DNA of 64,000 nt from Pseudovirgaria hyperparasitica (Eukaryota), in NCBI GenBank assembly GCA_010093815.1, contig ML996575.1; one strand, written 5' to 3'. The notes under the pieces were generated by a model. The model searched no databases and had not been told where the DNA came from. It saw nothing but the letters and a program-made list of their open reading frames with translations. Of the stretch, positions 13,298-54,792 are shown one piece after another (position 1 is the stretch's first letter; each line of letters opens with the position of its first letter). A program made the position numbers and the translations under genes.

Positions 13298-16027
13298 TCA
13301 ATCGTATCCGCCGCCGCCACCGCCGCTACCCCCTGCTTGCCCGCTGGCACCACCGTATAGGCCGCTTCCAGTGCCTGGTCCGCTGACGCCTACGGTTACG
13401 CCGACGCCTGCTATACCGGGTGCTACGCCGCCGCCGGAGTCTGCGTAGACGGGGATGCTGGTTGTCACGGCTGGGTAGGCGAAGGAGGATGGATGGGTGG
13501 GTGTATGGGGGGAAGTGTACTGAGCGTAGTCGCGCTGTTGCTGTTGGTGCTGTTGTTGTTGCTGTTGCTGTTGCGGTTGTTGCTGCTGTGCTTGCTGCGG
13601 CGGGTAGTCTTGGCGGTGAGCGGGCTTTATGTCGTTCGGACCGCCGGTGTATTGGGATAGCGAGACGGACACGTTGACGTTGTGATGGCCGCCCTGTGTG
13701 GGTGCGGGCGGGGGCATGCCGGAGGTGCCTGTTATTGCGGCGCCTGGGTCGCTGTATAGGGGCGGTGTGGGACCCGGGGGGTGGTGCTGCGAGGGGTGAG
13801 CGCTGTGGTGAGAGCTGGGGAGATCGGGGGGTTGAGGCGGGTTGGGGGCGTAGCCGCCGGCGGAATGGGGCGCGGAGCCAGGCAGGGCGGAGGCGAGGGA
13901 GAGCTGGTTTGTCATGTCGGGGAGCATGTCGTTGATCTTCTCCATCAGCACGGTGGTGTAGCGCGGGGAGTTGGCGCGGAGGTTGCTGATGATGGTGTAG
14001 TAGCGGGTCAGGAAGTCTCGTGGAGAAGGGGGAGAGGCGCCGAAGGAAGGGTCGTAGGACGGGTTGATGGACTGGGCGTAGTCGAGGGGGACGTAGGACA
14101 ATACATCGGTGAGAGTGCACGCGACGTCGAAGAGTTTCTCGATCTAAGGGGGAGGAAACGTGTTAGCTGCCTGAGGCCCACAATATCGCGAGGTAATGAA
14201 TGGTACAATCGGTGGCCCTTGTGAGAGAGTCCGGGACCCACGAGGCTGGAAGGGAGGAACGAGGAGAGAGGCATGCGAGCGGCAGGCCTGGACCGTGGTG
14301 GAGAGAGCAATACGCAGGGCAAGTGTGTTTCCTGCAATAAGCAGCGATGTGCGGAGACAAACACACACCCAGGCCAGATGCCGCAAAGTCGTTCGTCATC
14401 CCCCAGATGATCGCAGGCTTGATGCGGACGTTCCCCAATGCGCCGTCTCGTGCAGAGTCGAGCGGATCCGCGAACGGTTACGGCGGACGTCATGCTTGCA
14501 GATGGGCCAATCCCAATCCCAAGCCAGGGGGTCGAGAATCGGACATGGGCCAGGGTATAGAATAGCGCCCGGGCAGACAAAAGGAAAATGATGGCATGAA
14601 TCGTAAACAGATATGACGTTGCAAAGAACTTACCAGACCGACCCCATGCACTTCCATTGCCTGCTGTCTGAAATGGCTTGACATGGCTATCCAGTCGCGT
14701 GATATCTCGATCGGGTACTTGAAGCTCATCGCGTTGTCGGATGCGACGCTGGAGATGAAGCCGTGGCTGATGCTCAGCTGCCATACCATGGTCTTGAGCC
14801 AGATCTGGCTGGTGCGCAGATCCACAACCTGCGTCTCGGTGTTTGTATTCTCGAGATAGACTGGCAGGGCGTCCTCGAGTTTCTTGTGAAGTTCGAGTAG
14901 CCAGGAGGGAAGGCATGTCGTCTGGACCTTGTTCCACAGCCCGATAAACGTGTCGTCAAACGGCCTATATAGGTTGATTAATCGGCAAAACCCTGTAATT
15001 GAGATGCGGTCCGTGGGATCTTCGTCCTCAATTGGAGGGTGTATCGTTGCATGCAACGTCAGCGGACGATGCTTATGTAGTGCAAATGCTCTGGGAGTCA
15101 TGTCAGCCTGACCCCATATGACCATCCATATACATGGAAAATATCCATCTTCAACAAACCTTTCGGTGATAAACAGTTGCCAGAACAAGCGCCGGCGCTG
15201 CAGAGTCTCCATGGGATCCAGAGTTCTATATGATTCCTCGTCTCCCATGCCCAGACTGTGCGCATGTGTGGTAGCTTCCCGGAGGTGAAACCAGGCGGTG
15301 TTGGGCCTGTCGATGGCAAAAAAACATTCGTACATATAATATGAAGTGAGTACCGTCAAAATGGTCGGATTCTCCGTATAAGTGCCGTTCTTCCGCACCC
15401 GGATGGCTTCCTCCAAAAGCGCCTCGCCGTACGCCCCATTCGACGGCTGCGCGGCCGCTCTATACATGTCGAGACCAGGTGGCGGCGGCATGTTGCGCTG
15501 CAGCATCATCATGTAGGCGCAAAACACGGTGACGAAGCAGTACGGCTCCAGGGTATGCTCCATGGCCATGAAGTACTCGGCCAGCCGCTGGCGGTGCAGA
15601 ATGGGCTGGGTGGGATACAGATTCGCAAAGTAGTAGTCGGCACAGTGGTCGGCCAGCTCCTGGTTGACGAGATGCGGCGTCTTTGCCCACGCCGGCTCGA
15701 ACCTGGAGAAGTCGTGGAGATAGGGGATGTTCTGTCGCTGGGTCTCGCGCAGTTCGGAGATGACCTTTGCGCGGCTGCCCTTGGGGCCCTTCTTCTGGGG
15801 GATGGCATTGTATGTGCACTGCAGGCCGGACGTGATGCAGTTCTTACATGGCTTCGCGCTGTCTCCAGTCCCACGCTCGCACTTGACTTTTCGCCGGTGA
15901 CAACTAGCATCAACATATCAGTGGGAGGGCGCACGTCGTGTGCACACAAAAAAAGCGACACACACCTGTCACAGGCTCTCTTGATGAGCGCTGAAGTGCC
16001 AGTCGGTGGAGTCGAGACGGGCGACAT
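13298..16027 (-). CDS. Zn(II)2Cys6 transcription factor of the COL-26/BglR/ART1 type (starch and sugar utilisation regulator)
   Basis: KRACDRC|HRRKVKC...PCKNC...CTYNAIPQKKGPKGSRAKVISELRETQRQ signature across intron 1, fungal TF middle homology region (AWFHLREA, RRRLFWQLFITER), IEKLFDVACTL after the 14633-14144 intron, and a Q-rich C-terminus. Confidence 0.85.
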
Positions 16028-26597: not shown

Positions 26598-27353
26598 ATG
26601 TCCCGAATCCTCATCACCGGCTCCGCCGACGGCCTCGGAGCCCTAGCAGCCCGAGACCTCCAAACCCGCGGCCACAAAGTCTACCTCCACGCCCGCTCCG
26701 CCCAGCGCGCCAAAGACGCCATGGCCTCCTGCCCGGGCGCCCAACAATGTCTCATCGCAGACCTCAGCTCCCTCTCCGACGTCAAGACCCTCGCCAGCGA
26801 CCTCAAATCCCTAGGTCCCTGGGATGCCATCGTGCACTCCGCCGGCGTCATGCACGGCCAAAGCGGCAAGACAACGGCGGAAAGCTGGGGCACGATCTTC
26901 GCCACGAACACCGTCGCGCCGTACGTAATCACCAGCATCGTCGGCGGCGCGTGTCGGCGCTACGTGTTTCTGAGCTCGAGCATGGAGAGTAGTGGGGACC
27001 CCATGTTGCGCGGGATCGAGAGCTGCTCGTATAGTGATAGCAAGCTGCATAATATCATGCTGGCGAGCTATTTCGCGCGTGTGCTGAAGGGGGCTGGAGT
27101 GGAGGAGAGTAATGCGCTGGATCCGGGGTGGGTGCCGACGGCGATGGGAGGGAGAGGGGCGCCGGGGAGCTTGGATGGGGCTGTTGAGACGTATAGGCGG
27201 TTGGCGGAGGGTGCGGGGAGTACGGGTGGGTTCTGGAGACCGTATGCGAAGAAGGGGAGTCCGGTGCATGGGAAAGAGGCTTTTGATGAGGGCGTACAGG
27301 GGAGATTGGTCGGGGAGCTGGCGCGGCTGACTGGGGTTGAGCTCGCTGGTTGA
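26598..27353 (+). CDS. Short-chain dehydrogenase/reductase (SDR)
   Basis: ILITGSADGLG Rossmann motif, HSAG, catalytic YSDSK (YxxxK), DPGWVPT. Intronless. Confidence 0.9.
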   Translation: MSRILITGSADGLGALAARDLQTRGHKVYLHARSAQRAKDAMASCPGAQQCLIADLSSLSDVKTLASDLKSLGPWDAIVHSAGVMHGQSGKTTAESWGTIFATNTVAPYVITSIVGGACRRYVFLSSSMESSGDPMLRGIESCSYSDSKLHNIMLASYFARVLKGAGVEESNALDPGWVPTAMGGRGAPGSLDGAVETYRRLAEGAGSTGGFWRPYAKKGSPVHGKEAFDEGVQGRLVGELARLTGVELAG

Positions 27354-28059: not shown

Positions 28060-28905
28060 TCACGACCGCGAATCTGCACGCGTGTGTAGACTCGTACGGT
28101 GACGCAACGCCAGCCATCTTTTACACTTTCCCGTCGCCGGTCTCACCACGTCGTGGTGGAACTTATGCTTCGACTCCACGTTCAGCACATAGCAAGTGCG
28201 CATCTGGACGGTCAAAGCCGGCAGAACCGCCCAGTGGAGTTGCTGTAGCTGGCGTTTTGCGTACTCGCGGGTATTTGCTTTCATCAGCTGGAGCCCCTCT
28301 TCGAACAGTTCTTGGGCTCGCTCTGGATCGACTCCTTTGCAGCAAATGGGTCGGAGCTCGGGGTAGCCGATTGCTTTCCACGCTCCGCGCTCAGCTGGGC
28401 CAGTGTCCGAAGCACTGTTGGTATCGGATCTCTCCAGCTCGAATAGGTGCTTGATCTCGTTCTGTATTCCATCGCGCGCCATCTGGTTGATTCGATGATC
28501 GATGAATGTCCCCAATATATCGAGGCTACAGTTCAGAGATATGACCAGAAGGTCTTGCTGCTTGATAAATGGATGGAATAAAAGTGGTCGAGTTAGGGAG
28601 AGGGAGCCGCCGCACAGGATTGGAACGAAGCCGCGATGATGGATAGATTTGATGCAACGCACCGCTGAAGAGATGAAGTTGGTCGGTTCCTCGTTTGCAC
28701 TAAGATGCCCTACAAAATGGTGTCGAACTCCTCTCATCTCCTGTGTAGTCACAGCACCGGACAGGATTGGGGCATCTCGGTACACTTGGATGCTATCGAC
28801 GGAGATGATCTCTCCATGACAGGATTCCGCCAATTTGATGCTCAATTCTGTCTTTCCAACTGCGGTTGGGCCGATGATTGCGATGATGGGGATCTTTGGA
28901 TTCAT
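28060..28905 (-). CDS. IPT: Isopentenyltransferase (dimethylallyltransferase), short adenylate-IPT-like form; putative cytokinin synthase
   Basis: P-loop GPTAVGKT, EIISVDSIQVY, GVRHH, CGGS, KAIGYPEL, TREYAKRQ. It is only 281 aa, intronless, with no C-terminal zinc finger. Confidence 0.9.
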   Translation of the reverse strand: MNPKIPIIAIIGPTAVGKTELSIKLAESCHGEIISVDSIQVYRDAPILSGAVTTQEMRGVRHHFVGHLSANEEPTNFISSAVRCIKSIHHRGFVPILCGGSLSLTRPLLFHPFIKQQDLLVISLNCSLDILGTFIDHRINQMARDGIQNEIKHLFELERSDTNSASDTGPAERGAWKAIGYPELRPICCKGVDPERAQELFEEGLQLMKANTREYAKRQLQQLHWAVLPALTVQMRTCYVLNVESKHKFHHDVVRPATGKCKRWLALRHRTSLHTRADSRS

Positions 28906-29605
28906 GTCTTCTGTAGAGAGTATCTTGACATGGAGACCGGGACATGCGAGGAGATAAGTGGACCATCCGATTCTTATTCATAGGGACTTTTGAAGCAGCA
29001 ATGAGTACTGTGATCAGAGTTGGCGAACACGCCACTGTCAAGATGCCGTTCCACACATGTCTACGGGGCGTTGCCGTGTGTGTGATCACAATTTGCGCAC
29101 TAAATCGGCTCAGAAGCCCCTGAGATGATGCCGACCCCCAGGTCAAGCTCGTGACGGTCAGAACAGGTAATTCATGGCTCGCATCTAGACCAAACCTGTT
29201 CTCCAACTTCAATTTGGCTCTACACCTGTTCCAGATTAGAAGGCATGATAGCCGGGGTTCTAGAATGCACTGTGCTCAGGAGTCTTCGCATTACCAAATG
29301 GAAACAAGCTTTGTGCAGGGAAACGACAGAGACTGCCATGTCGCATGATTGTTGACTCTGTTGTGGACTTGGACTACGTGATCAATGACCTTTGATCCGA
29401 TCACCAACCTCTCGCTCACTCGATTTCTTGCTCTGGTAGTAGAGTACTAAGTTATGAGTCCAGACAGGGATTCCGGAGGATTGAATAGCTCGATGATAGG
29501 CGTTCGAAAGTCAAGATAAGGAAAAGCGTGCAGTTTCTGGCTCCTTGTAGCCATACCAAATGCACCAGCATGAACTATATCACAAGAGTTGCTCAAGGAT
29601 ACCAG

Positions 29606-30353
29606 CTATAGTTTATGGTCACTCCAACAGAGCGAGTATCGACCAGCGGCTGGAGCCAACTGAACCATCTCGATGAGCTCTTGCATGGTATTGGCAACAT
29701 TGAAGAGTGCCAAATGAGGGCTGGAAACAAAGCCAACCTCTGCAGACGTACGAACCCAGCGCTGCAAATCATCAAAGAACCCACGAATATTGTAAAGCAC
29801 GACCGGCCGACCATGGATGCCCAGTTGACTCCACGTGATGGCCTCAAAGAGCTCCTCCATTGTCCCGTACCCCCCAGGCAGAGCAACAAACGCATCGGCC
29901 TCCTTGGCCATAATCGCCTTTCGCTCGTGCATGGTCGATACTAATGTCGTGTGACCATACTCCTGTTCCAGGGGTCTGTCCACCCCACGCTCTGTGGTGA
30001 TCAGTGCCCTAGGTATGACGCCGTGGACTGATCTGGGGCCAGAAAGCTGCACGAGAGACCTTGCCAGGCTCCCCATCAGACCCCGACTTCCACCTCCGTA
30101 GACCAGAGACCAACCCTGCGCATGCATTACCTTGGCAAGATCTTCTGCCGCGGTCTCGAACTGAGGAGAGTTGCCCGAGCTGGAGCCTATTGTGGCTTTT
30201 GTCAGAGTGCTTTGCAGTACGTATGCTACCGAAAGGGGTCATACCACAGAACACACACAAAGTGAATGGCTTTCGGGTGGCTTTTCTCGCTCCTTCTTCT
30301 GGTCTAGCTGTTGGGCCGTTGGTTGCCGTCTCTGGGAACGCTGCAGGACTCAT
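29606..30353 (-). CDS. LOG: LOG-family cytokinin riboside 5'-monophosphate phosphoribohydrolase
   Basis: Spliced CVFC|GSSSG (intron ~30244-30187), LVYGGGSRGLMG, MHERK, and the signature PGGYGTMEE. Confidence 0.92.
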
Positions 30354-31505
30354 CTTACATGCCCGTCAACGGTAATGAGTGATGTCAGAGACTACTGTGA
30401 TCACCATAGAATATGAGTTCAGCTTTTATGTTACCCGCTCCAGGGTTTTTGTCCGAATCGGGCCTTGTCATTCATGCCTGATCGGCTCATCGGAATGCCC
30501 ACGATGGGTTACCGACCGTGTAGACTGCTATTGTCACTACGCTTAAGGAGAGCCGAGACATGTATATCAAGCAGGCCCTGAGGTATTAGTACCGCTAACC
30601 ATCCATAATTGCAGTAAATGCGCCAATGACAGCCTTATAAATTCATATATAAAGGCTAAGACTAGGCCCCCACCCCCCGTCTCGAGTCTGCCTTACCCAA
30701 ACCCAACCCTTGACCCCGGAGAAGTCCCACTAACGATCGATCGCTCACGATATATCAATGCGAACACTTTTCCCCCCGGTAAAAATGTGAGAGAGACTTA
30801 AGGACTGATACATTACCCCGAGACAAGCTGACCGCGTGTCCTGTAGGGATTGGACATTGTATTACCAAAAGTGAAGCCAGCTAGCAGTCACATAACATGA
30901 CAGGGGCGACTTAACTTTACTCCTGCCACTCACAATATTATGAGAGCGCGAATGTGCTTCCATTGCAGACGACACCTTGTCGATGCCCGCGCCACTGAAT
31001 TTGGAGTTGTGTGCAGCCCCGACAGGCTGGCTCGTGCCGGGGTCCTCTATATCTCTCCGATATAACGTAGCTTGTTTATGGATGAAGTAGGGCCGTTTAA
31101 AGGTAGCAGGAGCGTCATGCGTCACAGCACAACAACATGAAGTCCAGCGAGTGGTGATTTCCAGCAAACGGAACACTACAATTATAAGTCTTGGAAAACG
31201 GACAGAAACGTACAACAATACATCGTCAGAACAAGCATCCCGCTTTTGCATGGCATGACAAGCGGGACGAGATACACAGAGCCAAACTAGCGTGCAAGGA
31301 GCAAGAGTAAACCATGGGAAAACTCATCAAAACAATGCAACACCCTGTCAATTTGGTCCCGTAAACGAAAGAAAACATCATGAACCACCAAACTAAAAGT
31401 TCCAATAACCCTCTACACACACATTCTCCTTGCACCCCTCCCCTCTACACCCATCACCTTCCCCCTCACACTCCCTCTCCCACTCCCAATCTCACACCCG
31501 CCCCC

Positions 31506-33486
31506 TCAAACCCCCTCAAAACTAACCCTCCTCTCAACCCCATTCCCCCTCCCTGCCCCCTTCTTCCCCGCCAACCCCGCCCTCGGCGTCAACGAAACCC
31601 AAAGCGGAGCCCTCTCCCACCCCATATACACCTTCTGCAACCCATGCCAATCCGCGCATCTCGGCGCAAGCTCCACGTCGAATTCCAGAAACAGGCGCGC
31701 TAGCAGGATGCGTATCTCCATGTATGCGAGTCTACACGACACGAGATGATGTGAATTAGCTTGGGGTGGGGGGATTTTGAAGGGGAGGTAATGTTTACGT
31801 ACGTTCTACCGATACAGTTCCGCGGGCCGATGTGGAAGGGCTGGAAGACGGCGGTGTTGTCGCGCGCGAAGCGGAAGTCGTCGAGCCAGCGCTCCGGGAT
31901 GAAGGAGTCGGGCCGGATGAAGTTGCGGCGGAGGTGGTAGGCGGAGTAGTGGAAGATTGAGACTGTGGTCTGTTGTTACGGGTCAGACAGGGCGAGGTTT
32001 TGGAGCGGTGTGTAGGTCGTGTTTTGTCAGAGAGATAGGGGGGAGGTAGTGGAGTAGGAAAAAGGGGCAAAAAAAAACACACATTCGCCGGCACAGCCCG
32101 CCCATCAATAACCTCCTCCACACACGTGCGCCGCGGAAAATTCCCCGGAAACGGCGGAAACACACGCAGCGCCTCGGCAACACAAGCCTGCATATACTTC
32201 AGCTCGCCCAGCTTCGCCGCCGAAACGGGCACTGCGCCACCCGCAGCAGCAGCCTCCGTCTCAGACCCAGACTCAAACACACCGCGAATCTCCGCCGCAA
32301 GCCGCGCCTTGACCTGCGCGTCGCGCAGCACATAGTAGAGCAAGCCGGACAGCAGCGTGGCCGTCGACTCACTCCCCGCAATGACAATCGTGCACGTGTT
32401 CGCGACGAATTCGGCGTCGGAAACCCTGCTTTCCGGGCTGGCCATGCGCTCGACGAGGTCGTGGCGGGCGGAGCCGAGGGCGCGGCGGTGGGAGGCGAGT
32501 TCGGTGGCGTGCTGGATGTGTGTGCGGCGGGCGGCGGCGAGGGAGGCTGGTATCAGGGCGCTGAGCAGGGAGGTGGCGCCGGGGAAGTACTTTGCTGTGC
32601 GGGCGAGGGCGCCGAATTTCTGGTTGCCCATCATGGCTTCGATCCAGGGGTGGTAGTTGCCGCCGCTGGTGAGGCAGTCGAAGGATTTGCCGTAGACGAG
32701 GGCGCCGGTGACGTCGAAGCTGAAGAACTGCGGGCTTGGTGGTTAGGATCTGGACTGTCTGTGGGAGTGAGGGATGGATAGGGGGATGAGGAGGGCTTAC
32801 GTTGAGCCACTTTACCAGGTCGACCTCCTTTCGCCCTCCGTCACAGGCATCATGAAGCCCCTTGATGAACAGCGCACAATACTCCTTGACGCGATCCTCC
32901 TCGGCCCGCATCCGCGACTCGGCGAATCCGTTCGCCAACAAGCTCCGGAAGTACGCATGGCGCTCCGTCCCCGCGCCTAGCAGACTCAAGTTCGCACTCG
33001 ACATGGAGCCGTAGAACAGGGCGTCCTTTGGGATCTCCGGTAAGCCCTTGCGGAAGCCGTAGATGTCCTTCCAGGCCTGGGCCGAGGCGTACGAGAGCTC
33101 GTCCGGGGCGATGCGCACGACGTCGCCGTACTTCTCGTGGAGGTCGCGGATGTCGTAGGGGAGTGTGCCGCGGATCATGGCGCGTGCGTACCACAGTCTT
33201 GAGCACCGGGCGAGTAGTGGCCCCGGGTATGCGCTCAGGGGCGCGTAGAAGGCGTTCCATATTGCGTTGAGGAGGAGGATTGAGAGGAGCTGCTTGTTGT
33301 CAGATGGGGTTCTCTTGTCTGGGTTGTGTGGTTGGGACTCACGAGGGCAGTGATGGTACATGAAGCCCAGATCACGCGTGGGAGTATGTTGGCAAAGTAT
33401 TGGCTGCTCTGGTCGGTGAAGAGGGCATTCGATGTAGCGACGAGGTGGAGGATAATCCACAGGAGCTGCGTGCTGCGTATGAACAT
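31506..33486 (-). CDS. Cytochrome P450, CYP65-like (5 exons; introns 33342-33290, 32800-32728, 32082-31970, 31802-31732)
   Basis: YPGP, LHEKYGDVVRIAPDELSY, I-helix AGSESTAT, EALR, PERW, heme motif PFHIGPRNCIG. An alternative upstream ATG lies at 33549. Confidence 0.9.
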
Positions 33487-34613
33487 TGCGAGCGAGCGGT
33501 CGGTTTCCGGTGGGGGTGTATCCTGCTCCTTTGTGTAGCCTGTCGACATAACACAGTGCTCAGACTGTCTCGACTATCACGTAGCACTAGGGTGCGTTTA
33601 TTGAATATCGTCTTGTCTTCCAGGACTGGCACTCGACCGTCGTTCGGACGAGTGGATGTATACACACACAACTTGAACAATAACGTAGTTGTCACACAGC
33701 AAGTCGAGTATCGTCCGTTTTCTCATCGACCGATGGCAGACAGAGTCGCTCACATGTCAAAAGGTTCTGGACGTGGCAGTTTCCGAGTCATGGATCCCCG
33801 ACACGAGTGACATGCGTGAAATCCCGTCAGTTCATGATTGAACACCCCCCAGACAGGCCAGAAGGAGCTCGATACTTAAGAGCACGAAATCGTGGGATGT
33901 GTAAGGCATCATCCACTGCAGGCTTTCGAGTCGAGGCGGGGTAAAGGTGGAGGTAGGTCGTTGTGTTGTACAATGCGAGTGGACAGGGATGTTTCTCGAA
34001 GTGAGGTGGAGTGATATAAATCGTAGCCGCCTCGGCCGCATACCGCGTTTTGCGGGGTTATTAATCCGAGTCCTTGGGATTCCATCGGAGGATATCTTTG
34101 GCCCCCCACCATGCAGATCGATGTTTGCCGTCTTCCGGGCGGTGCTGGGAGTTGCAGGTGTCTGGTTGGACAGGGGCTCCGTTCCTAATGTAGATTAGGC
34201 TGTGCTGGGTACGTTGAGTTGATGGCAGATGTGTACTGGCATGTTTTGTTTACATGGCTACCACATACTAGACAGAATACATCATCCGGATATAAGTAAT
34301 TTCAGCCTATGGGCAAGCATCAAACGTTCATCCTTTTGCAAGCACTAGTCCGTACATCTCAACCTGTTCGTTTCCGGTCGTAGACAATGCACACAGGAGC
34401 ACGAGCCCTATATCAACAACCAACCATGACAAGAGCCAAACCCCAAACATCAAAGCCTCCAAAACTCATAACTATATCAGACTCTCACACCCATCTATCT
34501 CCCCTCCACGCCCCCAACCCATCCAAGACTCACTCTCCAATTCCTCAAATCATCAAGCCCTTAACCTTCAACCCCGAAACCATCAGCCCCGTAACCTCCA
34601 ACCCCTAAACACA

Positions 34614-36575
34614 ATGCCCTCCCAACCACAACAACCACCCTCACAACAACCACCCTCACAACAACCACCCTCACAACAACCACCCTCACAACACCACCCC
34701 CCCTCACCCCCAACCCACCCCTCAGTCCTCATCATCGGCGCCGGCCTCGCAGGAATATACATGCTGCACGCCCTCCGCAGCGCCGGCTTCACATGCGCCA
34801 TCCTCGAAGCATGCGCCGGCATCGGCGGCACCTGGTACCAAAACCGCTACCCGGGCGCCCGCGTCGACACCGCCATGCCACTATACCAGTTTTCCATTCC
34901 GGAGGTGTACAAGGTATGTTTTTGTGTCTCTGTACTCATGAACCGCTCTCTTTTGCTCTTTTGTTGGTTTGACTTTGTTTTTCGATGTATGGATGATTGG
35001 ATGATTGGATGGATGGGCAGATAGACGAATAGACGGACAAACGCTCACGCACGCCAGACCTTCAAATGGCGCTCCACACACCCCACCCGCGCCGAGATCA
35101 TGGAGTACATAGACCACCTCGACAAAGTCCTCCACATCACGCCCTACGTACACCTGCGCAAACGCGTCGTAGAGGCATCCTACGACACGCACGCCCGCCT
35201 CTGGACCGTACAGACCCAAACCACCACCAACGACGACGACACAACCACCAAACCCCCAACAACCCCAACCCAAACAACAACCTTCCACGCCCCCTACCTA
35301 ATCAGCGCAACCGGCCTCGTCTCCCACCCCTACACACCCCCCTGGCCGGGCCTCAACACCTTCGCCGGCCCAATCCACCACACAAAAACCTGGCCCCACA
35401 CCGGCATAAACGTGCGCAACTCCCGCGTCGCAATAATCGGCACCGGCGCCTCCGGCGTCCAACTCATCCAAGCCCTCGGCAAAGAAGCCAAATCCCTGAT
35501 CGTCTTCCAACGCACGCCGAACCTCTGCCTGCCCATGCGCGCACGCACCCTTGATGCCGAGGGACCAGAGCAAACAGATGAGGAATTGGCGCGGGTGTTT
35601 GCGCGGCGGCGGGAGACGTTTGCGGGGTATGCGGGTGAGTTTGCGGCGCGGTCGGTGTATGCGGATGGGGAGGGGGCGCGGGAGGAGTTTTTCGGGGGCT
35701 TGTGGGCGCGCGGGGGGTTTGCGTTTTGGGTGGAGAATTATGCGGATGTGTTGTTTGAGAGGGGGGCGAATGGGGTTGCGTATGAGTTTTGGGCGCGGGA
35801 GACACGGGGCCGGGTGGCGGATGAGAGGAAGAGGGGGGTTCTTGTGCCGCGGGAGGCGCCGCATTGGTTTGGGACGCGGAGGCCGTGTTTGGAGACGGAT
35901 TATTATGAGGTGCTTGGGCGGGAGAGTGTTGAGGTTGTGGATTTGCGGGGGAATGGGATTGAGAGGGTTGTGCGGGAGGGGATTGTGACGGCGGATGGGG
36001 TGGTGAGGGGGGTGGATGTTATTTGTCTTGCTACTGGGTTTGATGCGTTGACGGGGGGGTTGACGGGGATGGGGTTGAGGGGGAGGGATGGGGTTGGGTT
36101 GGGGGAGAGGTGGCGGGAGGGGGTGCGGACGAATTTGGGGATGACGGTGTCTGGGTATCCGAATATGTTTTATTTGTTTGCGGTTCATGGGCCGAGTGCG
36201 TCGAATGGGCCGTCGTGTATTGAGCTTCAGGGGGATTGGATTGTGGCGGCGATGGTGAAGATGCGGGAGGAAGGGGTCGAGTCGATTGAGGCTACGGCGG
36301 AGGCGGAGGCGGCTTGGACGAAGCAGATTCATGATATACTGCGGGGGACGCTGGTACAGGAGACAAACTCGTGGTATAACGGGGCGAATGTGCCGGGGAA
36401 GACGGTGGAGCCGTTGATATTCTTTGGGGGATTTCCGGAGTATCGGAGACAGATCTACGAGGTCTTGGATAATGACTTTCGGGGGTTTGTGAAGGTTATG
36501 AAAGAGCAGGTTGTGGGGGAGGAATCGACGGAACGTGGTGCGGCGTCCTGTGCAGATAGGCCTATTCATGTGTAG
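34614..36575 (+). CDS. Type I Baeyer-Villiger monooxygenase (flavin monooxygenase, cycloalkanone monooxygenase-like)
   Basis: GAGLAG, GGTWYQNRYPGARVD, BVMO fingerprint FAGPIHHTKTWP, GTGASG, ATGFD. One intron at 34914-35057. Confidence 0.92.
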
Positions 36576-36928
36576 GGCGTATATGGATGTATTGCTCGTG
36601 TCTGTAGCCCGCAGAGCGCTTGTTATATTGAATCTCGGATACCATTAGCATGGATCGGATTCTCTTGTCGGCCATGTACTCACATTCCACTTACCTAGGT
36701 AGTCCTGAATCTGACTCTCATCGTCCACGGACATCAGTAAGAGACACCGCAAGCATCTCCTGTGATAAAACTTCTCGATTGATGATGCCTCTGATGAATG
36801 CTGCCCGCAAGAGCCGCGTATATTTAGACTCCGCCACCTGTAGAAGACACACCAGACAATGCATCTCACCATGCCCACCCACCCGATATTATGATACACC
36901 CCAACCCCATACCCCAAAGCCAACACTC

Positions 36929-38214
36929 TCAAAACCCATCTCCTTCCTTCCACTCTCTCCCCAGCTCCTCCGCCCTCGTCTTCGGGTCATTGCCCCTCTT
37001 GACCGCATTATCCCTCAGCCCGTCCAAGATCTTGTTATATTTCTGAATCTCCTTCTCGAACTCGGCATCCTTGCCAGGCTCCGGCTTCTCCAGCTTCTTG
37101 AGCTCCTCCGTCTTGCCCTCTTTCTCGGCCTTCTCGATGGCCTCCTTTTTGTTCCGCCAGTCGCGCAGCTTGCCCTCCCAGCCACGCTTCTTCCCATTAA
37201 TCTCCTGATATTCGTTGTATTGATCGCGGCCGCCGAAGCAGAAGCCGTAGCCGTCGCAGTAGCTATGAAGTGTTAGCATTGACCATCAAATGATGCTCTA
37301 GTAGTTGGTGCTTACCAGACATGCTCCTCGGGGCAATGAAACGTCTCCCCAGTCCAGATAAAGTGCCACACGTACTCCCACACGCGCCCACTGATCCCAT
37401 CCTCCAGCCGCGTCCGCAACAGCCAGTCGCGGTAGTAGACATACCGCGACAGTGGAAGCGCCCGGATTCGGTCCGCGCTCAGGGCAAATTGCGCACAGCA
37501 CATGCCGGCCAACACCTGCGGAATGGGATCCAGCGGGAAAAGCTCACTCCACGCTTTTGCTAGCTCGCGCTGTTCGGGACGGTGCTCGTCGTCGTCGGTC
37601 GCGCCGGGCTTCATCCAGTCCGGGCAACCGGGGTGCCAGTGGCAGCGCAGGTTCATGAAGCCCTCGCGGATCACGCGGTTCGGGTTGAGACGCTTGACAA
37701 TCTCGGACGAATCGAGACCCATGATCTCGTTGTTGTGCCAGGTCCAGCGATGCCAGTGCATAAAGAGCGTGACGTCGGGCAGGTCGTGGTAGTTGTCGAT
37801 GATCCATGACAAGTAAATCATGACTTCGTGGCCTTTGTTCTTCGGCGGGTGGTACTTCGCGCTCGGGTCGTTGGCAACGTATTTTGCAATCGGTTGGTTA
37901 GGAATCAGTTCCTGCACCCAGTTTGTGTCCTCCTCCTTTGTCGTGGCCATTACCAGCAACGTGCTGAAATTGTATCCCATAGGCCTACTCTCGCCAGGAC
38001 GGAAGTCCATTTTCGGATTCCAATTCTTGAGGTCTTCAGTCGGGTCATGTTGCTGTCCGCGGTCTGGATCCAGCACCTCGTCGAACTTGTCGCCTAGACC
38101 AATGTGTTGCGGTATCCTCCGCCATGTCGCTTCGATCGATGTACTGTGGTAGTAGAAGAGGAAGATAATGACTGCCGCAATCGCCGTGATGGGTATGAAA
38201 CGTCGCTGAATCAT
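36929..38214 (-). CDS. DUF3431-family type II membrane protein
   Basis: N-terminal TM helix; NKGHEVMIYLSWIIDNY, FMHWHR..WHN, CCAQFA, SGRVWEYVWH, C|YCDGYGFCF across the intron at 37315-37263. Confidence 0.85.
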
Positions 38215-39945
38215 CGCGCTGGATGTATGGAGACCGATGCTGTGTTCCCAGTCGGTAAGGATTGTTCGACGATGGCGTGTATATCTCTACAAACGTGGGC
38301 ACACCAGCACCTCGATGGCAAAGAGATGAATATGTGCGAATGGCCGCCGCAACATTAAGGAACGGGTATCGAAGTAAGTAAAGACTCCTGAATCCAAGGC
38401 GGGCTGGGCAAGATTGATTCTAGAGGTTCCTTGAATGGGCGCCACATTGGGGCTGAGATTCCGCCCCCCGCCGCCCAAAGGCTAGGCTACGTACTATTTT
38501 AAAAGCGCCAACATCAGAATACATAATTAGCGCGAGAGTGGAAAGGGAGTTCAAGTCATGTTAAGCAGTGTTTGTTGTCTACGGAAGCTATTTGCCATTA
38601 CACTGCACGACTCTGCGGGAAATCCATGTGTACAGTTCGAGAGTCAATGCACCTTGCAAGGAACCCCCTTGACCTACAACGCCATGACATCATGAGTGTG
38701 TGACATCCTGACAGTAGTATTAAGACCATCGTCTACTAGAGGGAGACGACAGGCCATCAACAACGATGCCACACGCTCTAGACTAGGAGCAGTGTGCGTC
38801 TTTGTTCTCGTGTCTCTCGAGTTTACAGCTCGAGGTGCTGCACAGTATGACATCTCGTCAAAAGGCAACAGTCAGGCTTTGCAGATATAGTTGCAATGCT
38901 TACAGGCATCTTGCGCAATACACGCCAAGAAGGACCCTGTCTATACGCTTCGACAAAATAGAGCATGTCGAAACGTGCCATGGTTTCAGCTTACCTAGGC
39001 GAGAACCAGGCAAACCTGTCTTGGTCTTATTATGTCGAGTCGCGGTGCAGTCGCATACAAGGTCACAGAGGAGGGGCCAGGAAAGGACCTACATGGTGAG
39101 TTTTCAATGTTGTAGTGGCGCATGTCAGGTCGAAGAGCAGAGCTAGAGTGAGAGGCGATATGCGGATTGACGGGTAAAGGCCAATTATATAGAAGCGCCT
39201 GTCATCTGTGTAGATATATCAAGTTGATGGATTTAGCTCGTCTTCATGGCGTCATTCGTGCATGCTAGAGAGAGATTAAAAGGAGACTCGAGGGCGGTCA
39301 GGTGAAGCTGAGTCCCTAGTGAGTGTTTTGGATGAAGCTGCTGATATCGTCAAGGTCACGGGGGAAAAAGGGTCGAAGTCGCAGTTGAATGGTGAAGCGC
39401 ATGGCGAGTTATGTTTGTTTCGAGGCCTCGAAATGGATTCGTTGCCTTACCATCATCGTTTTGTTGTAAATCTAGGAGAAGTCGCTGCAAGCGCTGAGAG
39501 TGCTGTTCACAAGCCGTTCTTCCGAATCCGTTTTCAAAGAGTATGGTAGTACAAATTGCGATGTCGACTCGTCAAGAGACGCAGACAGGCGCCCCGGAAG
39601 CTGCTGAGACACCGCGCCGTGCTGTTGCGGAGGCGAAAAGTCGCAGATCGAATTGCCCAAGGAAATCCACATATTATGCCGTACCGTTCGAACCACGGTG
39701 TATGAAATGACAGATGGGAAGTTGTGTGATGATTATCGCTTTGCCATCCCGCCGACGCCGATGAAACCGAAAGATGATACTTTTTCCGAGCCACAAATAT
39801 GATGACTTGCCGCTACAAGGTTAACATGCTCACCAACGGTCGGCCGAGTAATACACACAAGGTCGAGCTTATAACGTGGCATGTCGAGCAACTTTCCGAC
39901 TTTAAGCGCGAGTAGTCGGACCTGGTCTTGTTAGCGGAAAAGGCA

Positions 39946-43995: not shown

Positions 43996-45006
43996 CATCC
44001 ATCCATCCATATCCATCATTTGCTTTTACCACGATACAATCCACCAATACCCTTCGCCTTCTCGGGCCTTGGGTGTTGGCGCGATGGAACCGACAGAGAA
44101 AGGCAAAGGGATTAGCTGTGTTGTCCACTTAACCAATTGGCCGTCACATGTCCCAGCTGTACCAGGCGTTTGATCCGTAGATGACGTTACAGGTTACAAG
44201 AGGAGATCGATCATCGATGGGATGCACCGCCACCAGACGTGATTACTTTGGCTTGGCCGTAACCACGCCGCAATCAATTCGAGAGACACATATGGCCGTC
44301 TTGTAGCCTTGTGTCGTGTGCGGTAGATGCCATAGCCCAGCATGTCAGGCATATATGATAGGACTGTGTCGTGCGGTTGAAGGCCGACACTGGCCGTGAC
44401 ACCATATGTATATGAGAAGAGCGACAACATCTTGCATCCTGCATCCTGCAGTACCGACGTTTGCATAAAACCTCCGATGCGTCTAATACCGGCCCACACA
44501 GCCAATGTGACTGCTGCAGAGGCGGCTGAGTATTACAGCACTAATGTCGGAGGATAGCAGTGCAGTCCAACTATCCACTTCGAGCATCCATGGCTTTTGT
44601 GGCCACGCGCATGCCATCCAGGACGCTGAAGTTCGGTCGCTTCCATAAGCTGCGGATCGCTCTCGAACATGGCAGCATGCACAAGATGCATGATTGACCC
44701 ATTGTTCTTAGTGGCGAGGTCTTGGTGGTGTCGACACATGGTGGTACCGGTGGGTGCACACTGGGGCATTGGTCTTGGCTTGGCTTGCAAAAGAGATATG
44801 ATATATCACAGCTAGAATGTGGGCACTGACTATCTTACCTGGCGAGGCGTTTGTCGCTTGACTTGAGTCAAGAGTAGCAGAAGAGAGGACAGCGAATACT
44901 CTGTTGCACATATGCCGAATACATATTCATATCATCTCGTGCATGTCGCGGGTATCGATAGCCAGCCAGGGAGCGCGTCAAAGTGGATCTCTCGGCTATG
45001 GATCCA

Positions 45007-45123
45007 TCCGTCGTTTTCCTAGAACCTGAGTCGGCTTAGCACTCGCATGTTGCGCTATGTCTCCCCCACCTAAATTTACGTGAGACAGACATATTTTAGC
45101 ATTTTATCATATACTCGTCGCTA
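45007..45123 (+). repeat. Left terminal inverted repeat (117 bp)
   Basis: TCCGTCGTTTTCCTAGAACC...ATACTCGTCGCTA is the reverse complement of 56578-56694, apart from transition mismatches. Confidence 0.92.
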
Positions 45124-45169
45124 ACGCGTTACTATTACCGATTATATATATTTAGTAGGTTATTAAGGC

Positions 45170-46310
45170 TATCTAGTAGTTAGTACACCTATTATATAGT
45201 ATTCTTCTAGTATTTTTAGCTTATAGTTATATATAGTAGGCCTACCTAGTAGGGTGTACGAATCTAGTACCTATTATTAAATTAACTTCCTTCTTAAACA
45301 CGATATACCTATAATTACTACCACCTAGAAGTCTTAGGTCTCGAAGGCTATAGTTAATTATATAAGGTATAATCTATCTACGTATAGCTAGCGAAGTAGA
45401 CCTCTATCTATAAAGACGCGTGGTTATAAGACTATACTTAGTAATTATATAATAGAATTACTATTCGAGTACCTACTCTAGGAGGGATAGCTATACCTTA
45501 ATAAGATAGTTAAATAGATATATAAAGAGCTTAAGATAGTAACCTTACTATCTACTATCTTAAAGTAGTTAAAGAAGTAAGGGTGGAATAGGCGGCTATT
45601 AAAGCGTATTTATTCTTAACGCTTAGAGATTATACGTCGCTCCTATCGTAAGGATATAGCTTAGTTACCTACTAATCGCCTTATCTTTATTAATAAGGTT
45701 ATCTTTAATAAGAAAATAGAGTAGAGGAGGCGAGGTAGGGCTCCTCGTAGAGAGACTTCTATATAATCTACTAGTATTAATCGAGGCTAGATATATAGCG
45801 TATATAGCGTAATCTCTATTAATAGATTTATTACCTATAGAATTAAGAAGGGCTACTTTAATAAGGAAGAGTTTATTAATTAGCTAGAGGTATACCTATT
45901 TCCTAGCCTATAAGAAAAGTATCCTAACTAGGTAATAGTTATCGTGATAGATAATCTCTCGCTCTATACCGATAAAGACGTTACTCCTATAGTTACTATA
46001 GCTAGCTATACTCTTCGATATACACCGCCTTATTCGCCTAATTATAACCCTATTAAGTTGGTATAGGCGGTACTAAAGGCGTGGATTTGAAGGTGGTACC
46101 TATACGTACGTAAGTAATTAGTTAACTTCGAGGAGTTCTTATACCGCGCCTTTAAGAATAGCTACTATAATAGATTTACTCTCCGCTACTTTAAGTATAC
46201 TACTAATGGCTAGTATATTAATAAAACGCTACGGGAGTATATTATTAAGGATTTAAAGTAATTCGGGCGTAGAAGAAGAAGTGGTTTTATAGAGGAAGTT
46301 AAGGATATTA
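45170..46310 (+). pseudogene. RIP-mutated DD34E (DDE_3) transposase
   Basis: De-RIPped reading: LIFIDE..FNEKTGWRRRGRAP (~45680), IVMDN (45941) followed by 34 codons to LRYTPPYSPDYNPIELVWAVLKAWI. It has many TAA/TAG stops, and the boundaries are approximate. Confidence 0.85.
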
Positions 46311-46567
46311 GTTAACTTTTTATAGTACTATTTACTAACTAACGTTATATCGTCCTTACTTATATAGCTTAATATAGTAATATAGAGGTTACTTAATTAT
46401 ATATATATATATATATATACTAAATATAAAGTTCGCGATATCTCTACTTAAAGCCCTTATATAGTACCGGAGGTAAGCCCGTAGAGTGCCTTCGCTACTT
46501 TCTCCTACTCTACTACCTTTAGACTATTCTTATACTTATAAAGATAGCGATAAGTATTAAGGACTAT

Positions 46568-46805
46568 TGTAAAGAGTAAAGACGTAGGATAGTAGTCTAA
46601 TAGTTCATAGAGAGACATAGAAATGTATTTATAGAGTAATCTTACTCTTATATAAGGTTGATTCCTAACGAGTAGAAATCGGTTTATACGGTCTACTTAT
46701 ATAGTAACCTCGCTTAACTTAGCTAACTTAACCTAGCTCTAGCCACTACGTGGCTATATAGATTAGAATAGTTTATATAGATCTATTATAGTTCCCGTCC
46801 TAATA
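46568..46805 (-). repeat. 3' LTR (238 bp)
   Basis: TGTAAAGAGTAAAGACGTAGG...GTTCCCGTCCTAATA is a direct repeat of 54550-54787. Confidence 0.92.
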
Positions 46806-49800
46806 ATATCCTTCTTCTTTTTATACTTCGCTCTAAAGTACTTAAGTATATATAATCCTAAGTCTCTATAATCTATCATATATCTATATATCCGTGACTA
46901 AGTTTCTATAATGTTATAACTATCCTTAATATAGGTAAACTTAAGATTCTAGTTTACTTTTACTAGTTTATATACGCGCTTATTCCTTACTTCGTGGCTA
47001 CTACCTAGGATATATAATTACTACTTTAGTCGAGTATATATTTAGCTTCGCTCGCCTTTAATTTTATTCTCTAGTATATCTACCTCGCTCTTAAGGTAAG
47101 TTATTAATTTATATACTATCTTCTCTAGTTTAGGTTTAGAAGGGTCTATAGTAGTCTATTCTTATTAGAACCGGTCCTATATAACCTATTTACGTTATTA
47201 TAGTTACTAATTTAGCTTTATTAATTACCGTTAAGGGTAGACGAATATTCCTTCCTTAGATCTCTAGCTAATATATATATATAGATATCTAATACTAGTC
47301 CTATCTCTAAGCCTACCTCCTTCTCTTATAAGACTCGCTCTAAAGATATCGCCTCCTCCCTAGCCACGCCGGCTAAGAAGTCTACCTATTACGGTAGTAT
47401 AAAGGCGCGCTCCAAGTCGGAGAAGAGAGTAGCTAGGGCTACTACTACTACTTCTACTACTAATATGGCCACTGGTCGCTCTAATCTAGGTAATCCTAGT
47501 ACTAAACTTATAGATAAAGTAGTTATAGATTCTCCTCTCACTCTAAAGCGTACGCCATCTACTCTACCTTCTCTAGAGGATAAAGAAGATCTTATTATAG
47601 ATAATAATCGCGAGCCCTCGCGCTTACCTACGCCACCGCCTTACCGCTCTTCCTTCCGGTCTAATATAGACCGATTTAGTTACTCTAGGTCCTTTTAGAA
47701 TCTTAATATTTACTCTAAACCCTAGTCTACTAATAATAAGGCCTAGGTCGCTAAGAATACTAAACGTGGTCGCGGTTTACGCTATAGAAAAACGGCGAAC
47801 TACGGTTTAATATACTATAAGTATATTAAGGGCTATACGGCCGGCTCTAAATATCTCTTTCGCTCTAACTCTAGTATTAGCTACTACTCTACTAACCGTG
47901 ACGGGCCTATATACCCTATCTTTACTCTATCTACCCGCTACCGCTACTATACTATAATTAGTAAGACTTATCTATAGATAAGTATAATAGGCTATCTTAA
48001 TCTAGTATAATCTAAAGTAGTCCACGCTAATATATTCTTAGGTTCCTATATATATATAAGATATATATAACGACCTTCGCGTCCGTGAGACCCTTAGGGG
48101 TTCTTATAGCCGCCTATCTACTATATAGAGGGAGTTTAGAGAGCGCTATAAGCTCTTCCTAGAGGTTATTAAAGTATAAGTTATAAGCACGTTAATTATT
48201 TTTAATATCTATTAATTTTTCTAGCCGCCGTAAGATCCCTAGCGCCTAGACTACCTATTCTAGGGAGTCTATCCTAGCTATAGAGGCCGTAGAGAGGATT
48301 CGCTCTATCCCCCTCTATCTATCTTACGCTACTAATAGATCTTATAAGAGGTCTACTATTTCTCCCTCTAAGTCGCCTTATAAGAGGGTATATATTCCTT
48401 TCTAGATTATTCTAGATCGTGTTAGCTAACTTTAGACCTAGTCGCTACGCTCCGGCGCTTAAGGCTCTTCCCTCTAGGCTCTAACGGATCGGGTTATTAC
48501 TCTAGAGGCTAAGGTTATCGTCCTCCGCCGCTATATCATGCGGTTAGAGAGAACTATACTAGAGGTTAGAATAGATAATAAGATAGAGGAGTAGCTCTAT
48601 AGTTCTAGCTCTATGGGTTTGGCTCTATATATTAGCTCTATGGTCTAGCTCTATATATTAGCTCTATGCCTGGCTCTATATATTCTAGATCTACTATAGG
48701 TGGTACGCGCCGGCTGTAAGGAGGCGGGCTCTACGTACTAACCAACTACACCAAAAGGACCGAATCTTGAAGCTACTACTTCAAGGGTAGAGTACACTAC
48801 TTATATACGACTGCTGCACATATATAGAATCAACTGGTAGGCCACGTACCTGACACCGGCTCTATTTACCTAGCTTTTATCCGTTTTAGTCCTTTTTAGA
48901 CCGTTTAGATACCCGTCGGCTAGTTTCTAGTAATTTAATTCTTAACTTAGTGATATTATATGTACGCTCGCTTAGCTTATAACTATCGGTTTCTACATTC
49001 TAATTTTCCTTAAGTTACCTAAGTATAGGCACCGTATATAAATTAGTTTATCTCTATAAATTCTATTAGAGTACCTAAACTAGTAGCCTAGTAGTTATCG
49101 GTTCGGGTACTCTAACCTTTTATATTTCGTGTTAAGAGTTTAATTCTATAGTAGGGTACCTTTTTTTTAGGTTCTTAGTCCTATATTTTTCTCGTATATA
49201 ATAGTCCATATTAGTCCATTCTAGACTCTTCTATGTTATTCTATTATGGTATATCGCGTCGCGTTCCTAAAATAGTTATTTACGCTTTCTACGCGTCTAG
49301 TAACCGTACGACGCTTAAATTATGGGGCTACTATATAGAGTTTTCCTAGTGCGCGTCTAGATTTCCTAGTTTAGCACTTCGTTCTCTATAGTATCCTTCT
49401 TCTTTTTATAATGACCGTAACGTTACTATACTTATATTAATAATACGCTATTCTATATCTTTTACTTATATATAGCCATTATAGAACTTAAGATATATAC
49501 CGCTAGTTCCTAGGTGTCCTCGTCCTTAGTATAGTCCTTCTAACGGATTCTATATTTCTAAATACCGTCTTTATTAATTCTATATTCGATAATATAGTCT
49601 ACTTCGAACACGTCTAGTCTATCTTAGGGTATAATAGAGTATAACTATACGTTCGTGTAGCTATATATATTAGATCGAAATCTTTCGAGTAGTAAGACGT
49701 GGAACACGTTATAGATTCTTATATCGCTTCCTAAGTCGAGCTTATAGGCTCTTATACCGATACGACGTTTAATTCGGAAGGGACTAGCTATTTTATAATC

Positions 49801-50095
49801 GAGCTTCTTATTTACTCGTGATATTTATATATTATAGACGTTAAGAAGGATCTTATCGCCCTTCTTATACGTCTAATCCTTAGCTAATCTATTATAGTAC
49901 TTCGTATACGAGTCGTTTACTTATTAGATTATAGCGCGATAGTTACATGCGGTTTCGAAGATTTTAATTACTAATTTCTAAGCGTGGACGTTCACGTCTA
50001 TTATTTAATTAAATTAGACCGTCTAAGGCTTAAAACCTATCCTTAGACTACGTCCGAGGTTCGCCTAGAAAGGTATAATATCTATTATACTATAA

Positions 50096-50165
50096 NNNNN
50101 NNNNNNNNNNNNNNNNNNNNNNNNNNNNNNNNNNNNNNNNNNNNNNNNNNNNNNNNNNNNNNNNN
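50096..50165. other. Assembly gap (70 N) within the retrotransposon integrase region
   Basis: Run of N characters. Confidence 1.
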
Positions 50166-54549: not shown

Positions 54550-54787
54550 TATAAAGAGTAAAGACGTAGGATAGTAGTCTAATAGTTTATAGAGAGATAT
54601 AGGAATGTATTTATAGAGTAATCTTACTCTTATACGAGGTTAATTCCTAATAAGTAGGAATTGGTTTATATAGTCTACTTATATAGTAACCTTGCTTAAC
54701 TTAGCTAACTCAACCTAGCTCTGGCCACTACGTGGCTGCATGGATTAGAATGGTTTATATAGGTCCATTGTGGTTCCCGTCCTAATA
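54550..54787 (-). repeat. 5' LTR (238 bp)
   Basis: Direct repeat of 46568-46805, differing by C/T and G/A transitions. Confidence 0.92.
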
Positions 54788-54792
54788 ACTAT

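Follow-up and report, generated by a model that had tools for sequence, protein, structure and literature searches.

We have analysed a 64,000-nt stretch of DNA from the fungus Pseudovirgaria hyperparasitica (contig ML996575.1, assembly GCA_010093815.1; hereafter the window, with positions counted from its first letter), in which a gene of the isopentenyltransferase (IPT) type lies next to a gene of the LOG (Lonely Guy phosphoribohydrolase) family. The two genes, a candidate pair for the synthesis of cytokinins, lie on the same strand with a spacer between them:

28060..28905, minus strand: IPT gene, a single exon with ATG at 28905, open reading frame (ORF) of 846 nt, 281 aa, insertion-less IPPT family
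28906..29605, no strand: LOG-IPT spacer of exactly 700 bp, into which the LOG 3′ untranslated region runs at least to 29439
29606..30353, minus strand: LOG gene, exon 1 30353..30245 (109 nt), intron 30244..30187, exon 2 30186..29606, 229 aa

Public proteins agree with both gene models: P0001 (281 aa) is identical to the IPT and P0146 (229 aa) has 100% identity to LOG. The LOG intron is 58 nt long with GT..AG borders, and the stop codon TAG of LOG lies at 29606-29608. This intron is skipped in contigs of two sequencing runs, X3 and X4, while the DNA run X1 is colinear there. X3 and X4 are not on record as RNA; they behave as RNA-derived because exact introns are skipped in them where X1 stays colinear, and they were treated as such, with their depths left unused for ranking genes. 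The X3 contig of LOG carries on colinearly, with no further splicing, to 29439, 167 nt beyond the LOG stop, and no joint linking LOG to IPT was found in the RNA contigs. Since the LOG contig passes its own stop and no joint is seen, LOG and IPT are separate genes and not a mis-called fusion. A LOG-IPT fusion made by splicing was considered as well (an acceptor-like CTCTCTACAG lies just 5′ of the start codon of IPT, and a donor, weak but in frame, is found near the LOG end) and was dropped for the same two reasons, though a gap in cover proves nothing in itself. An in-frame TGA at 28978-28980 stands 24 codons 5′ of the IPT ATG. An earlier reading of the window from its letters alone (the sequence-only reading) had described two same-strand genes with LOG 5′ of IPT, a stop codon of LOG's own, a gap of ∼700 bp and an in-frame stop ahead of the IPT start; the sequence and the RNA contigs bear out this description and add the LOG intron to it.

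The IPT is matched by the Pfam family PF01715 (IPPT) with 94.9 bits against a cutoff of 23.6, and by PF01745 (IPT) with 43.3 bits. The PF01715 match comes as two stretches with ∼80 profile positions missing between them. The best solved relative by sequence is yeast Mod5 (3eph, E-value 1.1e-29): query residues 7-105 align with Mod5 4-104 and query residues 127-231 with Mod5 197-296, which leaves query 105-127 opposite Mod5 104-197 and ∼90 Mod5 residues (the insertion, anticodon-stem-loop-binding domain) with no counterpart in the IPT. No zinc-finger family was found in the 281 aa by Pfam scan, so that the C-terminal zinc finger of eukaryotic tRNA-IPTs is missing too; in the long relative P0285 the Pfam scan does detect a zinc finger. 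The P-loop GPTAVGKT (motif GPTxxGKT) at residues 12-19 is invariant in all 13 short IPTs that were aligned, as are D37, S38, Q40 and Y42 of the DSxQxY motif, whose columns align to the same motif of Mod5. The Asp of this motif is the catalytic residue in Mod5 and MiaA. An AF2 model of the IPT (pLDDT 86, pTM 0.84) covers 75-79% of 2qgn (a bacterial core, truncated) and of 3a8t (an adenylate IPT from a plant), and just 55% of Mod5 3eph (TMt 0.55).

The missing insertion domain and zinc finger, in the alignment and in the predicted structure, support the view that by architecture the IPT is not a tRNA enzyme. The opposite view is that IPT and LOG are neighbours by chance, each with an everyday housekeeping role, the one in tRNA modification and the other as a general nucleotide phosphoribohydrolase. 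All fungi have housekeeping members of both families, and Mod5 is indeed the closest solved sequence relative of the IPT; the absence of both tRNA-enzyme elements argues against such a role, and the distribution of relatives, to which we now turn, does so as well.

A profile built from 13 short fungal IPTs (A1) and searched against 1.84 billion representatives gave 24,571 hits at an E-value of at most 0.001. Among the 150 profile hits listed, 28 (P0266-P0293) were scanned with Pfam. More than half (15/28) are short or partial proteins of 197-324 aa in which the IPPT match is mostly split in two, as in the window IPT. Two are fusions of IPPT followed by Lysine_decarbox, P0273 (489 aa) and P0284 (469 aa); the former has cluster members in Fusarium subglutinans, F. 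circinatum, F. anthophilum, F. bulbicola and F. mexicanum, and the latter, from F. austroafricanum, is named ‘Bifunctional cytokinin biosynthesis protein’. One unbroken IPPT match, from profile position 1 to 241-243, is present in eight others (one of which has a dsRNA-binding zinc finger), and the remaining three are of other kinds. A search for longer IPT homologues had returned 25 proteins, none with a LOG domain; since the 469- and 489-aa fusions surfaced by profile search only, the word-based homologue lists are not exhaustive. When metagenomes were scanned with the IPT alignment, 601 pattern matches came up, of which 23 were confirmed as loci, and no fungal neighbourhood was obtained; these loci resemble bacterial MiaA, with identity of at most 58% over short N-terminal stretches and 30-44% over longer ones.

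A maximum-likelihood tree of IPTs was made from 47 rows: 24 short, 4 fused (first 285 residues), 14 long eukaryotic and 5 bacterial, with partial rows such as P0007, P0009, P0015, P0272, P0281 and P0288 set aside. The tree unites short and fused IPTs in a single clade (support 100/99) and keeps the 14 eukaryotic rows of tRNA-IPT type outside it. Eight of the long rows were looked up: five bear the name tRNA-IPT or tRNA dimethylallyltransferase (Basidiobolus, Diversispora, Saitoella, a JGI record) and one is an unannotated Nonionella record. Within the joint clade, the window IPT falls inside a subclade of 18 unfused proteins (98/89), where its nearest neighbours are two proteins at 54 and 52% identity, followed by those of F. 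beomiforme and Pyricularia. The Fusarium fusions are in the sister subclade (95/87) together with six unfused proteins, including those of Penicillium cf. griseofulvum and Aspergillus nanangensis. The grouping with the IPT halves of the Fusarium fusions and the architecture described above uphold the supposition of the sequence-only reading that this IPT is not of the tRNA-modifying type.

Short IPTs are also found as a sister group in plant-pathogenic Dothideomycetes (P0008 and P0011-P0015, from Venturia effusa, Alternaria spp. and Stemphylium lycopersici), and one source labels these proteins ‘adenylate isopentenyltransferase (cytokinin synthase)’. For Venturia effusa, Alternaria spp. and Stemphylium lycopersici, the 120 LOG matches listed include no LOG of the window clade, and the short IPTs of these fungi may work with another partner or alone. 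Short IPTs with no obvious LOG partner occur in records of Alternaria, Stemphylium, Venturia, Penicillium and Aspergillus, which makes the family broader than the examined literature suggests. One short IPT of fungal type, P0269 (263 aa), is filed under the tree Carpinus fangiana; it possibly comes from fungal DNA in a plant assembly.

The LOG protein is matched by the Pfam family Lysine_decarbox/LOG (PF03641) with 131.6 bits (family PF03641/TIGR00730), and among solved structures it comes closest to 5ajt (‘phosphoribohydrolase Lonely Guy’), at an E-value of 1.1e-45. Proteins of this family carry the motifs GGGxxGxMG and PGGxGTxxE. Both are present in the window LOG as YGGGSRGLMG and PGGYGTMEE and are conserved over 16 rows. 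Among the matches listed, those closest to it come from Neonectria, Fusarium, Pyricularia and Pyrenochaeta; they are stand-alone LOGs with 56-61% identity. A quick tree of 42 rows puts the window LOG in a 14-row clade with SH-aLRT support of 96, and the four fused LOG domains in a different one (99), which they share with ordinary LOGs of Pezizomycotina, e.g. that of Glonium stellatum. Forcing the window LOG and the fused LOG domains together made the tree 22.2 log-likelihood units worse, with a p-value of the approximately unbiased test (p-AU) of 0.025 for a group that was chosen with the tree already in view.

The pairing of a short IPT with such a LOG appears to recur. In F. beomiforme the IPT and LOG are KAF4333864 and KAF4333863, numbered consecutively and from the same 54,259-nt contig; in Pyricularia sp. 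CBS 133598 they have the consecutive locus tags PspLS_08796 and PspLS_08797, and in Fusarium sp. DS 682 the consecutive locus tags IL306_001269 and IL306_001270. The LOGs of all three pairs fall in the 14-row clade of the window LOG. A possible further pair is P0010 and P0154, both from records with a longest contig of 87,122 nt. Because it is read from numbering, the adjacency of IPT and LOG in these fungi is deduced. We also observed that F. austroafricanum has a stand-alone LOG of the window clade (P0420) besides its fusion (P0284), which means that fused and unfused systems can coexist in one genome.

These comparisons tell further against two housekeeping genes that happen to be adjacent: the IPT clade stands apart from the tRNA-IPTs, the pairing recurs by numbering in three other genomes, the LOG clade is distinct from the Pezizomycotina LOG clade of Glonium stellatum and others, and the distribution is patchy, Magnaporthe oryzae reportedly having a single IPT-domain gene (PMC4765853) and Pyricularia sp. 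CBS 133598 an extra pair. We consider a housekeeping role of the pair highly improbable.

The sequence-only reading had called the locus an unfused variant of the cluster known from Claviceps and Fusarium. The shared IPT clade agrees with this, but the placement of the window IPT in a sister subclade and of its LOG in a different LOG clade does not. Judged by its sequences, the module is a paralogue of the fused IPT-LOG system and not a broken copy of it; because the IPT lies in the sister subclade and the LOG in a clade of its own, the module looks as if it was assembled separately rather than split from a fusion.

We propose that IPT and LOG constitute a two-gene de novo module of separate proteins that would make cytokinins of the isopentenyladenine type, a reading to which we assign a probability of about 0.65. 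Adenylate-IPT activity is suggested by the clade shared with the IPT-LOG fusions and by the activity reported for these. The IPT would move the dimethylallyl group of dimethylallyl diphosphate (DMAPP), which in fungi is derived from mevalonate, to N6 of a free adenine nucleotide; the acceptor would most likely be AMP, by analogy with CpIPT-LOG of Claviceps purpurea, and the product isopentenyladenosine monophosphate (iPRMP). LOG would then cut the N-glycosidic bond and free the base isopentenyladenine (iP). A cytochrome P450 encoded nearby may hydroxylate or oxidise the side chain, as do P450s encoded beside IPT-LOG fusions. The substrates and products, and any role of neighbouring oxidoreductases, are predictions. 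Of the fused relatives, IPTLOG alone is reported to give iP, and IPTLOG together with the P450 to give trans-zeatin (tZ) (PMC5203792), while CpIPT-LOG is described as preferring DMAPP and as not using ADP or ATP (PMC7913349).

The RNA word depth of the IPT is low, 1.5-4.9 in X3 and 0-1.2 (near zero) in X4. Such depths are what one would see if the module were a relic, fallen silent or in decay, that no longer served any function in P. hyperparasitica, and pseudogenised IPTLOG copies are known in Fusarium according to PMC5203792. However, both reading frames are intact with all invariant columns kept, LOG is transcribed and spliced, and the fused clusters are likewise reported to be strongly repressed in axenic culture (PMC5203792). 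Because of this repression, low IPT expression in culture would be expected of an active module; the observed depth fits and proves nothing. We regard a relic as quite improbable.

Around the pair, the window contains the following genes and transcripts:

31506..33549, minus strand, co-oriented with the pair: cytochrome P450, coding-sequence model of 5 exons, 577 aa
33550..34613, no strand: P450/BVMO intergenic region of 1,064 bp between divergent genes and common to both
34614..36575, plus strand, divergent: type I Baeyer-Villiger monooxygenase (BVMO), 605-aa model after removal of a predicted 144-nt intron
36090-38286, minus strand: DUF3431 gene, Pfam match of 287.8 bits, confirmed introns 37315..37263 and 36683..36634
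26598..27353, plus strand, converging on the IPT 3′ end: short-chain dehydrogenase/reductase (SDR), Pfam adh_short 54.6 bits, covered by an RNA contig
∼30708..31405, plus strand: spliced transcript between LOG and P450, intron 30787-30846 with GT..AG borders, ends inferred from depth bins

The P450 gene sits 1.15 kb from LOG. Its four introns (33342..33290, 32800..32728, 32082..31970 and 31802..31732) are all skipped in X3 and X4 contigs, the heme motif FxxGxRxCxG is intact and PF00067 is matched on two exons; an ESM Atlas search with the largest exon returned generic P450 clusters only. The BVMO model has the fingerprint FxGxxxHxxxWP near residue 202 and two GxGxxG motifs, near residues 42 and 228, and solved BVMOs match it with E-values from 2.5e-126 (5j7x, the best) to 1e-107. 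The co-oriented P450 and divergent BVMO named in the sequence-only reading are thereby confirmed, the former by its introns in the RNA contigs and the latter by its fingerprint. The predicted BVMO intron (34914-35057) holds an in-frame stop at 35022-35024, and the RNA contigs 34732-36036 (X3) and 34727-35964 (X4), which are unstranded, run colinearly across it; this unspliced cover may come from transcripts that keep the intron, or else from antisense transcription that reads through from the DUF3431 gene, which is convergent. The DUF3431 transcript seems to reach ∼36090, an inferred end, and would overlap the 3′ end of the BVMO coding sequence by ∼480 nt. The N-terminus of the BVMO (34627-34690) is encoded by a short tandem repeat of PPSQQ type, and contigs of the DNA run break exactly there. 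The SDR is possibly a neighbour only. In the spliced transcript between LOG and P450 the longest ORF in a six-frame check is ∼42 aa, so it is probably non-coding.

This neighbourhood raises the possibility that the same first two steps lead on to a specialised N6-prenyl-purine metabolite, with the P450, the BVMO and/or the SDR as tailoring enzymes. Such a compound would have its effect inside the fungus itself or on the rust that it parasitises (e.g. on sporulation or germination) and would not be a plant-hormone mimic. P450, BVMO and SDR genes all lie within 6 kb, and P. hyperparasitica is described as a mycoparasite of rust sori (PMC3317363). F. pseudograminearum is described as making modified ‘Fusarium cytokinins’ from a larger cluster, FCK1 to FCK4, and a review (PMC7913349) reports that the Claviceps P450 mutant sporulates more and draws a parallel to discadenine. 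Yet the tailoring genes have no significant motif in common with the pair and a different GC content at third codon positions (GC3), the predicted BVMO intron is left unspliced in the RNA contigs, and in relatives IPT-LOG alone is reported to be enough for iP (PMC5203792). We therefore hold such a metabolite to be unlikely, and prefer the two-gene cytokinin module.

The promoter of the IPT presumably sits in the 700-bp LOG-IPT spacer. An 11-mer with exactly two copies in the window is found ahead of both genes of the module:

29006..29016, minus strand: 11-mer TGATCACAGTA, copy 1, 101 nt 5′ of the IPT ATG
30393..30403, minus strand: 11-mer TGATCACAGTA, copy 2, 40 nt 5′ of the LOG ATG

The LOG RNA contigs have their 5′ ends (30365 and 30381) a short way downstream of copy 2. 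The 11-mer has no statistical significance, 12 of 100 shuffles having given at least three matches at one mismatch or fewer, and it is only a lead for a regulatory site common to IPT and LOG.

Several points weigh against the proposed module. The unfused subclade is known from sequences alone, and its function is a prediction. The rows of the trees were hand-picked from search lists, three of the four fused rows are near-identical, and the LOG tree is a quick tree. Adjacency in the other fungi is read from successive numbers and matching contig sizes rather than from the DNA itself, and the inventory of IPT and LOG genes is that of the 64-kb window and not of the whole genome. The RNA cover of the IPT, besides being very low, is unstranded, and the gene is intronless, so that its strand is unverifiable in these data. 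As for the P450, common promoter words upstream of IPT, LOG, P450/BVMO and SDR were no commoner than in shuffles, and the GC3 of IPT (0.60) and LOG (0.57) is unlike that of the P450 (0.80); since GC3 differs and no shared motif is significant, the P450 is linked with IPT and LOG by position alone.

No polyketide synthase, non-ribosomal peptide synthetase or terpene cyclase was detected when 35 of the larger ORFs of the window were scanned with Pfam. A second P450 (7142-8841, plus strand) and a Zn2Cys6 transcription factor (14490-15917, minus strand) lie 12-20 kb from the IPT. The block 44000-56000 is AT-rich, with a GC content of 0.31-0.42 against 0.48-0.59 elsewhere and almost no long ORFs, and possibly consists of degenerate repeats.

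P. hyperparasitica belongs to the Acrospermales (Dothideomycetes) in the NCBI taxonomy. The sequence-only reading had suggested that the cluster serves to manipulate host tissue (galls, scab); this is doubtful, because the organism parasitises rust sori, not plants. The accounts available to us (PMC5203792, PMC7913349) know de novo cytokinin synthesis in fungi only from Claviceps and Fusarium, where a fused IPT-LOG gene sits next to a P450, and regard it as a property of plant pathogens. No published account of an unfused short fungal IPT beside a LOG was found in our literature searches, which left out supplements, Hinsch 2015 and Sorensen 2018.

If the proposed module is real, a lineage of stand-alone short IPTs with a LOG lineage of its own would widen the range of fungi expected to make cytokinins of the iP/tZ type by a route that does not depend on tRNA turnover. 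Besides the rust mycoparasite, the pair is placed by numbering in F. beomiforme, in Fusarium sp. DS 682 and in one species of Pyricularia. The unfused pair would also offer a natural test of what the fusion adds to the pathway. The question is raised of what use cytokinin may be to a fungus that has a fungal host. As a tentative scenario, one that we would not bet on, ascomycetes may have built the de novo cytokinin pathway twice, once as the fused IPT-LOG and once as an unfused pair with its own LOG paralogue scattered in Dothideomycetes and Sordariomycetes; in the rust hyperparasite the product would then act in a three-way interaction, not by attacking the plant but by keeping the leaf under the sorus alive (a green island that feeds the host of the hyperparasite) or by signalling between fungi.

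The locus can be compared with four kinds of known systems. Like the bacterial loci (Rhodococcus fascians fas, Agrobacterium Tzs/Tmr), it clusters IPT and LOG functions, and the fas locus has a P450 beside them. The clustering of LOG with IPT in bacterial cytokinin loci is noted in PMC7913349. Unlike the window IPT, the bacterial adenylate IPTs are of the PF01745 family, and Tzs (2ze5) is a weak relative of it (E-value 0.0046, TMq 0.54).

With the eukaryotic tRNA-IPTs (Mod5/TRIT1; CKS1 of M. oryzae) the window IPT shares the IPPT superfamily and the same P-loop and DSxQxY core. It differs from Mod5/TRIT1 in having neither the ∼90-residue insertion nor the zinc finger, in its length (281 aa versus ∼420-480 aa) and in its separate clade.

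The plant adenylate IPTs (Humulus lupulus AIPT, 3a8t) offer a parallel in organization, as they too are stand-alone enzymes of the IPPT (tRNA-IPT-like) lineage, with LOG genes separate from them, and the modelled fold and size of the window IPT appear similar to those of 3a8t (TMq 0.77, TMt 0.75). The sequence match is weaker than that to Mod5 (5.5e-18 versus 1.1e-29). In our tree, which has no plant adenylate IPT rows, the fungal short IPTs branch beside the eukaryotic tRNA-IPTs, which may point to an origin independent of the plant adenylate IPTs.

The closest known systems are the fused IPT-LOG clusters: CpIPT-LOG/CpP450 of Claviceps purpurea, CK1/CK2 of the F. fujikuroi complex and the FCK cluster of F. 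pseudograminearum, represented in our comparison by fusions of Fusarium only, with no Claviceps sequence. Like these, the window is predicted to encode the same two enzyme activities, with a P450 nearby, the IPT shares an insertion-less clade with the two recovered Fusarium fusion representatives (100/99), and the expected chemistry, by analogy, would be AMP + DMAPP -> iPRMP -> iP. In the fused clusters the IPT is the N-terminal part of one polypeptide, whereas in the window the genes are separate, with stops of their own and a 700-bp spacer, and LOG comes first, opposite to the arrangement of the domains in the fusions. The window IPT lies in a fusion-free sister subclade (98/89) and its LOG comes from another clade than the fused LOG domains (96 versus 99). 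Finally, the fused clusters are those of plant pathogens, and the host of this unfused pair is a mycoparasite.

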